Below are positions 46,756 through 47,493 of a stretch of 64,000 nucleotides of DNA, one piece after another. The stretch is taken from sequence record PQ330092. One strand, given 5' to 3'. The translations under genes and the position numbers were made by a program. The notes under the pieces were generated by a model that saw only the letters and a program-made list of their open reading frames with translations, made no database searches and was not told the DNA's origin. Each line of letters starts with the position of its first letter. Within the stretch, counting starts at the first letter, position 1. Source of the stretch: Escherichia phage JP4.

Positions 46756-47493
46756 TTAGACTGAATTGTTAGGATAATATCTCCCACGTCCCCATATTAT
46801 TCGCACAGCACCACCACCAGCAGCCGTATAAGAAAAATTATCCCATATACTACCACCACCACCATACATCTTACCAGCACCACCACTACCAGCACCACCA
46901 TTATATGAACCATCGTATCTACCGCCAATACCATTAGCACCTTGAACAATGATACCAGTACCACCACCCGTACCAATGAACGAGGTATTATAGAATGCAC
47001 CACCACCACCGCCGCCGCCAGCACCATTTTCACCAGTGATTGCATCTCCGTTACCACCTTTACCAGTGTAGCCACCAGCACCACCACCAATGACTGCACC
47101 ACCACTTACACCAGCGTTGCCCCCATTACCACCACCATCATTAATAGCGTTAGCAGCTTTCCCACCTAGTCCACCAACCCTATATTCACCAGTGAAGCTA
47201 ACACATAGTTTTTCAGTTCCACGATATAAACCGTTTTCAACTGCTGTAGTAGTGTTGGGATGTGTAAGAGAAACACTTAAGTACTCACCACCAGAAACCG
47301 GAATATTATTACGCCACGATAAGCCGCCACCAGCACCACGTTGACCACCCGGCGAAATAACACATACTGATATTTCGGTAACGCCAGCAGGAACTGTAAA
47401 TTGTGTTGTTCCTATTGTCGTGATTAATTGTTCACCATGTGGCTTATATTCAATTTTATTCCCGAACTTAACCATTCTTCCAAAAGGTAACAT
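46756..47493 (-). CDS. MLPF-family protein with glycine-rich C-terminal domain
   Basis: MLPFGRMVKFGNKIEYKP.. then long GGxGG tracts instead of propeller repeats. Confidence 0.65.
   Translation of the reverse strand: MLPFGRMVKFGNKIEYKPHGEQLITTIGTTQFTVPAGVTEISVCVISPGGQRGAGGGLSWRNNIPVSGGEYLSVSLTHPNTTTAVENGLYRGTEKLCVSFTGEYRVGGLGGKAANAINDGGGNGGNAGVSGGAVIGGGAGGYTGKGGNGDAITGENGAGGGGGGGAFYNTSFIGTGGGTGIIVQGANGIGGRYDGSYNGGAGSGGAGKMYGGGGSIWDNFSYTAAGGGAVRIIWGRGRYYPNNSV

Follow-up and report, generated by a model that had tools for sequence, protein, structure and literature searches.

The open reading frame (ORF) at positions 46756-47493 (-) of a 64,000-nucleotide stretch of Escherichia phage JP4 DNA (record PQ330092; "the window" below means this whole stretch) encodes a glycine-rich protein of 245 residues, whose short N-terminal leader, beginning MLPF, recurs on unrelated proteins of the same array and of other jumbo phages. 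We propose that the protein is a small virion-associated adhesin head, and that the leader docks it and other interchangeable heads onto the virion, possibly onto its hairs; we put the probability of this reading at roughly 55%. The gene and its domain are of known kinds. What appears to be undescribed is the shared leader and its spread over cargos and genera: in the literature searched, including jumbo-phage comparative genomics, a 2026 review and the phiTE structure paper, no description of an MLPF leader in phages was found.

The ORF starts with ATG, is interrupted by no stop and has the N-terminus MLPFGRMVKFGN (residues 1-12, 47458-47493 (-)), of which 8-11 of the 12 residues are identical in its siblings, in agreement with the sequence-only reading that the protein starts like its neighbours. 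A protein-level scan located 13 MLPF ORFs in an array at 39152-53634 (-), 12 of full length and one a 52-residue remnant at 39152-39310. Twelve are RCC1-like propellers (Pfam PF25390/PF00415, PHROG 4219), and the remaining one is the glycine-rich gene. The leader alignment suggested by the same reading, run on the 12 full-length proteins, shows M1, L2, P3, F4, R6 and N12 to be invariant. Past residue 13, the glycine-rich protein has no significant similarity to its siblings (best E value 0.016, with composition correction off).

A total of 45 leaders were compiled. They were picked with an M[LIVM]PF or MLPF pattern, so that the presence of MLPF in 45/45 was selected for; judged by per-position entropy, R/I at position 6, a hydrophobic residue at 7, Y/T at 10 and N at 12 are restricted, and positions 5, 8 and 9 are free. 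We define here an MLPF-leader virion protein set of Rak2-like jumbo phages by MLPF, R/I at 6, a hydrophobic residue at 7, Y-G/A-N or T-x-x at 10-12 and a globular domain following directly, all of which are found in the window protein. At least five kinds of cargo, unrelated to one another, have the leader: RCC1, Kelch, an RCC1+Kelch fusion, Laminin_G_3 and the glycine-rich domain. The phages concerned are Asteriusvirus, Mimasvirus CBB, GAP32, Serratia phage BF and jumbo phages from metagenomes. In Pectobacterium phage CBB (Mimasvirus), eleven proteins encoded at three loci start MLPFx(R/I)…Y(G/A)N. Among these, CBB_144 is glycine-rich (it starts MLPFSPLIVYGN), CBB_247 and 548 are Laminin_G_3 proteins by Pfam scan and CBB_551 is one by its record annotation, CBB_550, 552 and 554 are Kelch proteins, and CBB_536, 537, 549 and 553 are without a Pfam match. 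GAP32 carries the leader on gp1. The array of phage BF, with the leader variant MLPFPIISNT, comprises seven RCC1-like proteins, two glycine-rich proteins and one other protein, and the Erwinia pEa_SNUABM phages have the same array by 98% DNA identity. Two metagenomic jumbo contigs (355 and 371 kb) contribute further MLPF sets, including the 667-residue RCC1+Kelch fusion. When the pattern MLPFxIISxT was searched in IMG/VR, multi-copy matches were found in jumbo contigs only; the single matches in small contigs are probably due to chance.

Outside the window, the leader is kept as a peptide and not as DNA. Across phages, its codons vary (CCT/CCA/CCG, TTT/TTC, TAC/TAT, GGG/GGA/GGT, AAT/AAC) while the peptide stays constant, and the DNA upstream of the leader genes is unrelated in CBB and BF; selection therefore acts on the peptide. 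The glycine-rich body is unrelated to the propellers, and its relatives have leaders of other kinds at that junction; this shows the leader to be a module and not part of the propeller fold. Five lines of evidence support the view of the sequence-only reading that the leader is a separable module placed on an unrelated domain: the fixed start of the conserved domain in the glycine-rich family, the low model confidence of the leader, its occurrence on unrelated cargos, the upkeep of the peptide across synonymous codons, and the presence of leader-bearing proteins in virions. The adapter or targeting role suggested in the same place would be consistent with all of these.

The junction is best seen in the wider glycine-rich family. 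Its conserved domain starts at a glycine equivalent to G20, after a short peptide, usually of 13-20 residues, that falls into several classes. In an alignment of 72 sequences, 31 N-termini are of the type MxE(L/M)L, five are MLPF or MIPF (the window protein included), and the others include further recurring types; in the representative search, matches begin at query residues 15-20 unless the homologue has MLPF as well. The commonest type, M-x-E-(L/M)-(L/M), forms a parallel leader class. Three RCC1 proteins of the Vequintavirinae phage W70 are virion proteins by mass spectrometry (PMC11370258); all three (PHROG 4219; OP778610, 18543-22041) start MLEM(L/M)NL. On a 150-kb Vequintavirinae-like contig (L020), a glycine-rich homologue starts MLEMLTVGK and a Laminin-G protein homologous to CBB_549/553 starts MNEMLMLGQ; the leader-class genes lie at 2459-3109 and 10001-10693 of that contig. 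The same cargo classes therefore carry one leader in Rak2-like jumbo phages and another in Vequintavirinae, as would be expected if the leader were matched to a lineage-specific acceptor.

The protein was modelled with AlphaFold2, the structure prediction that the sequence-only reading had called for (mean predicted local distance difference test score (pLDDT) 93.2, predicted template modelling score (pTM) 0.89), and the model consists of a confident two-part body and a low-confidence leader. Residues are given here in protein numbering; model numbers are one lower, the alignment row being without Met1. The first two blocks of ten residues have mean pLDDT values of 50 and 77. In a model of an RCC1 sibling built from the paralogue alignment (pTM 0.82), the corresponding values are 53 and 67, so that the leader is the low-confidence part of both models. 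It is followed by a linker, KIEYKPH (residues 13-19, 47437-47457 (-)), of intermediate confidence, and by a beta-sandwich of seven predicted strands with pLDDT above 90 (residues 20-100, 47194-47436 (-)), TNF-like in Pam3 gp24 terms. The glycine-rich region (residues 101-228, 46810-47193 (-)) contains the motifs NDGGGNGG, GGGAGGYTG and GGGTG(I/V); it is modelled confidently, and hardly any of it is given a regular secondary structure by DSSP, in keeping with a polyglycine-II or polyproline-II (PPII) lattice. Residues 229-234 are again a strand, within a closing segment with the signature (A)VRIIWG and a conserved P241 (residues 229-245, 46759-46809 (-)), and the stop codon occupies 46756-46758 (-). 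Glycine accounts for 29.0% of the protein, with 15% in residues 1-100 and 38.6% in residues 101-245. An earlier estimate of 40-50% was thus too high, and residues 1 to about 100 form an ordinary beta-sandwich.

As modelled, the glycine-rich body is a known kind of fibre-tip binding domain. Its best structural counterpart is the tail fibre gp24 of cyanophage Pam3 (PDB 7YPX/7YFW; score 12.8, 170 residues aligned, 16% sequence identity), followed by the mycobacteriophage Bxb1 gp33 "tail wing brush" (PDB 9D93; 9.5, 23% identity), the Bxb1 tail spike gp29 (8.6) and the glycine-rich domain of the ALK receptor (7.7); the receptor-binding domain of T-even gp38 is a weak match (3.8). Adhesins of the T2/S16 gp38 type have a polyglycine-II sandwich with glycine-rich motifs and hypervariable loops, and are attached to the tip of gp37. 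A Foldseek search against viral models returned dozens of "glycine-rich domain-containing" phage proteins. Pam3 gp24 consists of an N-terminal helical baseplate-docking domain, a TNF-like domain and a 39%-glycine domain of stacked motifs, the variable distal tips of which its authors propose as receptor-binding sites (PMC9608196). The domains of Pam3, Bxb1 gp33/gp29 and S16 gp38 have been classed together as PPII-helical bundles (PMC13243192). The window protein shares with Pam3 gp24 the TNF-like sandwich and the glycine-rich lattice head. Unlike gp24, which has a trimerising helical N-domain and a cognate chaperone, gp25, it has only 19 residues before the sandwich, of low confidence and with no predicted helix, and its gene is flanked by RCC1 paralogues and adjoins no gene for a Tfa-like chaperone, which may be encoded elsewhere. 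Bxb1 gp33, from a siphovirus tail tip, has the same two-domain unit, and no leader family is known there. With the RCC1 paralogues the window protein shares the leader only. Among PDB chains, a profile of the 72 sequences found no match at E<=1, the RCC1 siblings match only eukaryotic RCC1/UVR8/HERC, and W70_238 and CBB_549 match none; therefore, no solved phage structure shows the leader bound.

By sequence, the protein belongs to a large phage family. A word-indexed search gave 178 homologues, the best down to E 1e-145, and the representative search gave 336 clusters at E<=1e-3; the match to phrog_4474 ("glycine-rich domain-containing proteins" of phages and prophages) has an E value of 3.5e-67. 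Neither the window protein nor CBB_144 matches Pfam PF21722 (Gly_rich_2), even at E<=10, and the MLPF glycine-rich proteins of phage BF reach 17.9 and 20.2 bits, under the gathering threshold of 24.3 bits. Two clear PF21722 members, P0038 (32.7 bits) and P0037 (39.2 bits), match the window protein at E 1e-15 across 88% of the query and at E 5e-16, respectively, and alignment shows that NDGGGNGG, GGGAGGY and VRIIWG are common to the window protein and PF21722 members. The protein is thus homologous to PF21722/PHROG 4474 over the whole domain but falls below the Pfam model, and represents a divergent jumbo-phage branch with the MLPF leader. The family domain occurs as a stand-alone protein of about 250 residues or as one domain in proteins of up to 1,695 residues. 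In many proteins above 500 residues it forms a C-terminal head, and in some it is N-terminal or internal (P0134, P0174, P0202). It is joined to Laminin_G in P0144, to a discoidin domain in P0125 and to an immunoglobulin (Ig) domain in P0165. In P0122 (1013 residues, metagenomic), an MFELL leader and RCC1 propellers precede a C-terminal glycine-rich head that shares 48% identity with the window protein; two cargo types that are neighbours in the window are here naturally fused in cis.

The window DNA is of the Asteriusvirus type (121Q, PBECO4, phAPEC6), with vB_EcoM_E9.1 as the top match (98.5% DNA identity), and 121Q gp243, a "hypothetical protein", is orthologous to the product of the gene (98% identity). 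By tblastn, its ORF is intact in 17 phage records at 84-99% identity; by megablast, the 2.8 kb around it match 35 records. The gene is therefore conserved but apparently accessory.

Homologues and siblings of the protein are virion proteins. The CBB orthologue, CBB_144, was identified in purified virions from 5 unique peptides that cover 34% of it, and CBB_144, 247, 536, 537, 551 and 552 are named as virion proteins in the text of that study (PMC5259590); the CBB record lists CBB_548, 549 and 553 as "structural protein". GAP32 gp1 is a virion protein by mass spectrometry, and the RCC1 siblings gp003, 005, 006, 007, 009 and 010 were found in phAPEC6 virions, with 1-4 peptides each (PMC7247149). 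The CBB authors reasoned that the whiskers should come from structural genes that GAP32 lacks, and named six candidates, CBB_144, 247, 536, 537, 551 and 552 (PMC5259590); all six of these proteins listed as absent from GAP32 carry the MLPF leader. Virions of phAPEC6/121Q bear flexible fibres at the hexamer centres and three tail rings, to which no proteins were assigned (PMC7247149).

We then propose a model for how the leader might work. Residues 20-245 are modelled as a beta-sandwich and a polyglycine-II-type lattice, like the receptor-recognising fibre end of Pam3, and the flexible leader of about 12 residues, MLPFGRMVKFGN, together with the 7-residue linker, would replace a helical docking domain of the Pam3 type. 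The leader would be a lineage-specific docking peptide, common to the RCC1 paralogues, the Kelch propellers and the concanavalin-like lectin domains, that inserts into a common acceptor site on the virion. The invariance of MLPF, the conservation at positions 6, 7, 10 and 12 and the variability at positions 5, 8 and 9 point to a short stretch in extended form whose contacts are specific and buried. If so, many binding heads might compete for one set of sites and so decorate the particle, plausibly at the hair-like fibres on the capsid and tail of 121Q/phAPEC6/CBB-type phages, and would give multivalent and diverse adhesion to host surfaces. We infer that the leader acts as an incorporation signal, that the proteins sit on the outside of the particle and that they bind host surfaces.

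Conserved N-terminal anchors on exchangeable receptor-binding heads are an established principle. In branched systems, such as the second receptor-binding protein of the Klebsiella KP32 type, the tailspike proteins of CBA120 and the fibres of RaK2/phiKp24, a short conserved N-terminus docks exchangeable C-terminal heads to one common acceptor. MLPF differs from these anchors in that it is unrelated to them in sequence, its cargos are small globular domains and not depolymerase spikes, and up to 13 paralogues carry it. On this view, a gene family whose members are labelled all through GenBank with "DNA condensation protein", "regulator of chromosome condensation" or "PE-PGRS family protein" looks like a collection of exchangeable binding heads bound to the virion. 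The model also bears on a question left open in the CBB and phAPEC6 papers, namely which products make or decorate the hairs. A 12-residue peptide sufficient for virion incorporation would, if this is true, be a handle for display or host-range engineering of therapeutic jumbo phages.

Several points weigh against this reading. Presence in virions is seen for homologues and siblings of the protein; this very ORF is unannotated in phAPEC6, and the supplements of the CBB and W70 studies hold no peptide-level mass-spectrometry data on leader retention. GAP32 was treated in the CBB paper as possibly whiskerless (PMC5259590), and it has MLPF proteins too; the link to the hairs is therefore only correlative. 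The MLPF heads, as globular proteins of 25-45 kDa, are not themselves fibres and would not form the hairs; their place would be on an acceptor, as decoration, or at its tips. A DNA-condensation or inner-body role has been suggested by the phAPEC6 authors for the RCC1 siblings (PMC7247149) and by the W70 authors for their RCC1 proteins (PMC11370258). The helix by which Pam3 gp24 trimerises is absent from the window protein. Within the window, leader DNA is nearly identical among paralogues, with very few synonymous differences in the first 12 codons of ten genes, so that concerted evolution of the cassette adds to the local similarity of the leaders.

It is tempting to speculate further that MLPF is a universal plug for a modular surface organ of Rak2-like jumbo phages. 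In this bolder form, the hair fibres of capsid and tail would have common sockets for a dozen or more interchangeable heads (RCC1, Kelch, lectin-like and polyglycine-II) that make up a combinatorial multivalent adhesion coat, and MLEML would serve likewise in Vequintavirinae. The "DNA condensation proteins" would then really be adhesins, and no more than the leader would be needed to display foreign proteins on jumbo-phage particles. We hold this extension only tentatively, and would sooner expect some part of it to fail than the whole to stand.

Among the alternatives to a docking peptide on the virion surface, the one that survives best, though we consider it unlikely, is that the leader is a capsid-targeting sequence (CTS) of the T4 type, which would bring its cargo into the prohead core or inner body, perhaps with protease cleavage, from where the cargo would be ejected into the host or help to organise DNA. 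Mullaney and Black reportedly described the T4 CTS in 1996 as a short N-terminal tag on unrelated virion proteins, and the MLPF leader is likewise such a tag. The T4 CTS is an N-terminal tag of about 10 residues, enough to bring unrelated proteins into the virion; its last residues form a prohead-protease site (L/I-x-E), and the proteins that it brings in are internal. The MLPF leaders differ in having neither a conserved cleavage site nor a conserved Glu: no prohead-protease motif is conserved, and position 9, the one acidic position that could be a candidate, is K/E/N/Q/V/T among the 45 leaders and K/N/T in the window. The role in DNA packaging proposed for RCC1 proteins in the phAPEC6 and W70 papers (PMC7247149, PMC11370258) fits an internal cargo, as do the few peptides recovered per phAPEC6 paralogue. 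However, the cargo folds are those of external binding modules or adhesins (tail-fibre head, concanavalin-like lectins, propellers), and elsewhere such cargos are fused to discoidin or Ig domains, often at the C-terminus of fibre-length proteins.

Slightly less probable again is that the leader is not itself the contact with the virion and instead is a tag for an assembly factor, a chaperone or a modifying enzyme. One tag on many cargos would suit a shared factor, and in Pam3 and T4-like phages the glycine-rich heads of fibres depend on chaperones of their own, gp25 in the case of Pam3 (PMC9608196). Known fibre chaperones, however, bind the distal head and not the N-terminal peptide (PMC9608196), no Tfa-like or gp25-like gene adjoins the window gene, both flanking genes being RCC1 paralogues, and the propellers and lectin domains have no obvious need of the same chaperone.

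The shared 5' end could also be an expression cassette (terminator, promoter, RBS and the first 36 nucleotides) duplicated at the nucleotide level, and either maintained for translation initiation or homogenised by gene conversion, with a functionless peptide. The array offers this explanation some ground, as in ten window genes the DNA of the cassette and of the first 12 codons hardly differs. A 21-nucleotide leader DNA motif has 12 copies, all (-), at 40567-53634, against 0.02 expected by chance. At the glycine-rich gene, a terminator-like hairpin with a GCCAGTACTTGATACTGGC core and a T-run (47536-47562 (-)) closes the upstream RCC1 gene and opens the cassette. It is followed by a conserved promoter-like and ribosome-binding-site (RBS) block, ATTAAATATAGTATAATGAATAAAGGAGGGAATT (47494-47527 (-)), which is common to 10/13 array genes and contains a TATAAT-like element (about 47511-47521 (-)) and AAAGGAGGG before the ATG (47498-47506 (-)). 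The next cassette starts with a downstream terminator-like hairpin (46728-46750 (-)). Terminator-like sites are more numerous in the array than expected (21 against 6.7), and a sigma-70 promoter scan of the array showed no enrichment (70 found against 70.4 expected). The TATAAT-containing block is thus a candidate phage promoter by its position and conservation only, with no strong match to the sigma-70 consensus. That the glycine-rich gene sits in the same promoter/terminator cassette as its neighbours had been noticed before and holds for this gene; as a statement about the whole array it is too broad, since the full cassette occurs in 10/13 genes (the glycine-rich gene and nine neighbours), is missing at 44287 and 41828 and has diverged at 39310. 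A peptide of no function is nonetheless hardly probable, and this explanation is largely refuted: in CBB, BF, GAP32 and the jumbo phages from metagenomes the peptide is kept although its codons for Pro, Phe, Tyr, Gly, Asn and Leu differ, upstream regions are unrelated and the genes scattered over three loci outside the window, and glycine-rich homologues of other lineages have a different conserved peptide at the same junction.

That the glycine-rich frame is an artefact of a decayed or frameshifted propeller gene is next to impossible: the GGN-rich sequence does keep a second long ORF open at 46797-47105 (-), which is the one annotated in phAPEC6, yet the remaining five frames contain many stops or low-complexity Val/Pro/His/Thr runs without RCC1 signal, the glycine-rich frame is kept in the 17 phage genomes and has the homologues described above, its AlphaFold2 model has a pLDDT of 93, and the CBB orthologue was seen by mass spectrometry. 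Propeller repeats were sought in all six frames of 46700-47560, the check by which the sequence-only reading could have been overturned, and none was found; a Pfam scan that detected RCC1 in the neighbours gave no match at all in the glycine-rich protein. The remark that the protein has no propeller repeats therefore stands, and a propeller locus with an artefactual glycine-rich frame was rejected. The second ORF is a spurious Val-rich frame of 102 residues and not a gene. In phAPEC6 (MK817115.1), the annotated gp004 (7716-8018) is this wrong Val-rich frame, and the true ORF of 244 residues (7325-8059) is intact and unannotated; the glycine-rich protein could therefore not be found in that virion proteome.

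The array genes differ in detail. The 11 full propeller genes encode 369-401 residues, with one shorter product of 269. The genes starting at 41828 and 44287 (-) lie directly after the preceding stop or after unrelated sequence, and, being without the hairpin/promoter cassette, are probably co-transcribed with the upstream gene. A stretch of about 380 nucleotides, 41829-42208, is without a leader gene. The 13th MLPF gene (38887-39310 (-)) is decayed: a 52-residue N-terminal fragment, MLPFRRIITSSK…, is followed by a stop, the last propeller blade goes on in another frame (…GVYATGYNTGDNAGQLGIGT…DSPF), and the cassette has diverged as well. Two mechanical ORF calls, 44296-45678 (-) and 45542-46702 (-), are too long, as they read through the cassette (…IKYSIMNKGGN-MLPF); the real MLPF starts are at 45471 and 46684.

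Elsewhere in the window, the PHROG content comprises three "virion structural proteins", an RNA polymerase sigma factor, a T7-gp0.7-like protein kinase and two HNH/homing endonucleases. The annotated ORFs (4458-5270 (+), 5313-6467 (-), 24178-25455 (+), 11264-12229 (+), 26578-27252 (+), 13318-14106 (+) and 33396-34514 (+)) are interspersed in long runs of small plus-strand ORFs. No link to the leader was found for the three "virion structural proteins" among these larger ORFs.

Some related sequences deserve mention. The MLPF glycine-rich proteins of BF, Erwinia pEa_SNUABM_12/47/50 and Salmonella phage 7t3 go under the label "PE-PGRS family protein", which comes from mycobacteria and is here an artefact of composition; in BF (KY630187), the two genes lie at 3338-4180 and 5394-6191, within the RCC1 array. 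A protein of 548 residues (MLPFYSVKDYAN; start MLPFYSVKDYANAGKD) is encoded on IMG/VR contigs of about 20 kb (L007 893-2539, L012 4385-6031) and departs from the leader consensus after MLPF. A near-identical homologue of the window protein, P0002 (206 residues, on a 26.7-kb Logan contig), starts MNKGGN followed by KIEYKPHGEQ. Its leader has apparently been deleted exactly between two GGGAAT hexamers, one in the RBS (GGAGGGAAT) and one formed by codons 11-12 (GGG AAT), for which window positions 47458-47510 can be compared, and about 34 residues of the glycine tract are also gone; P0002 may be a natural variant without the leader, or else an artefact of assembly.

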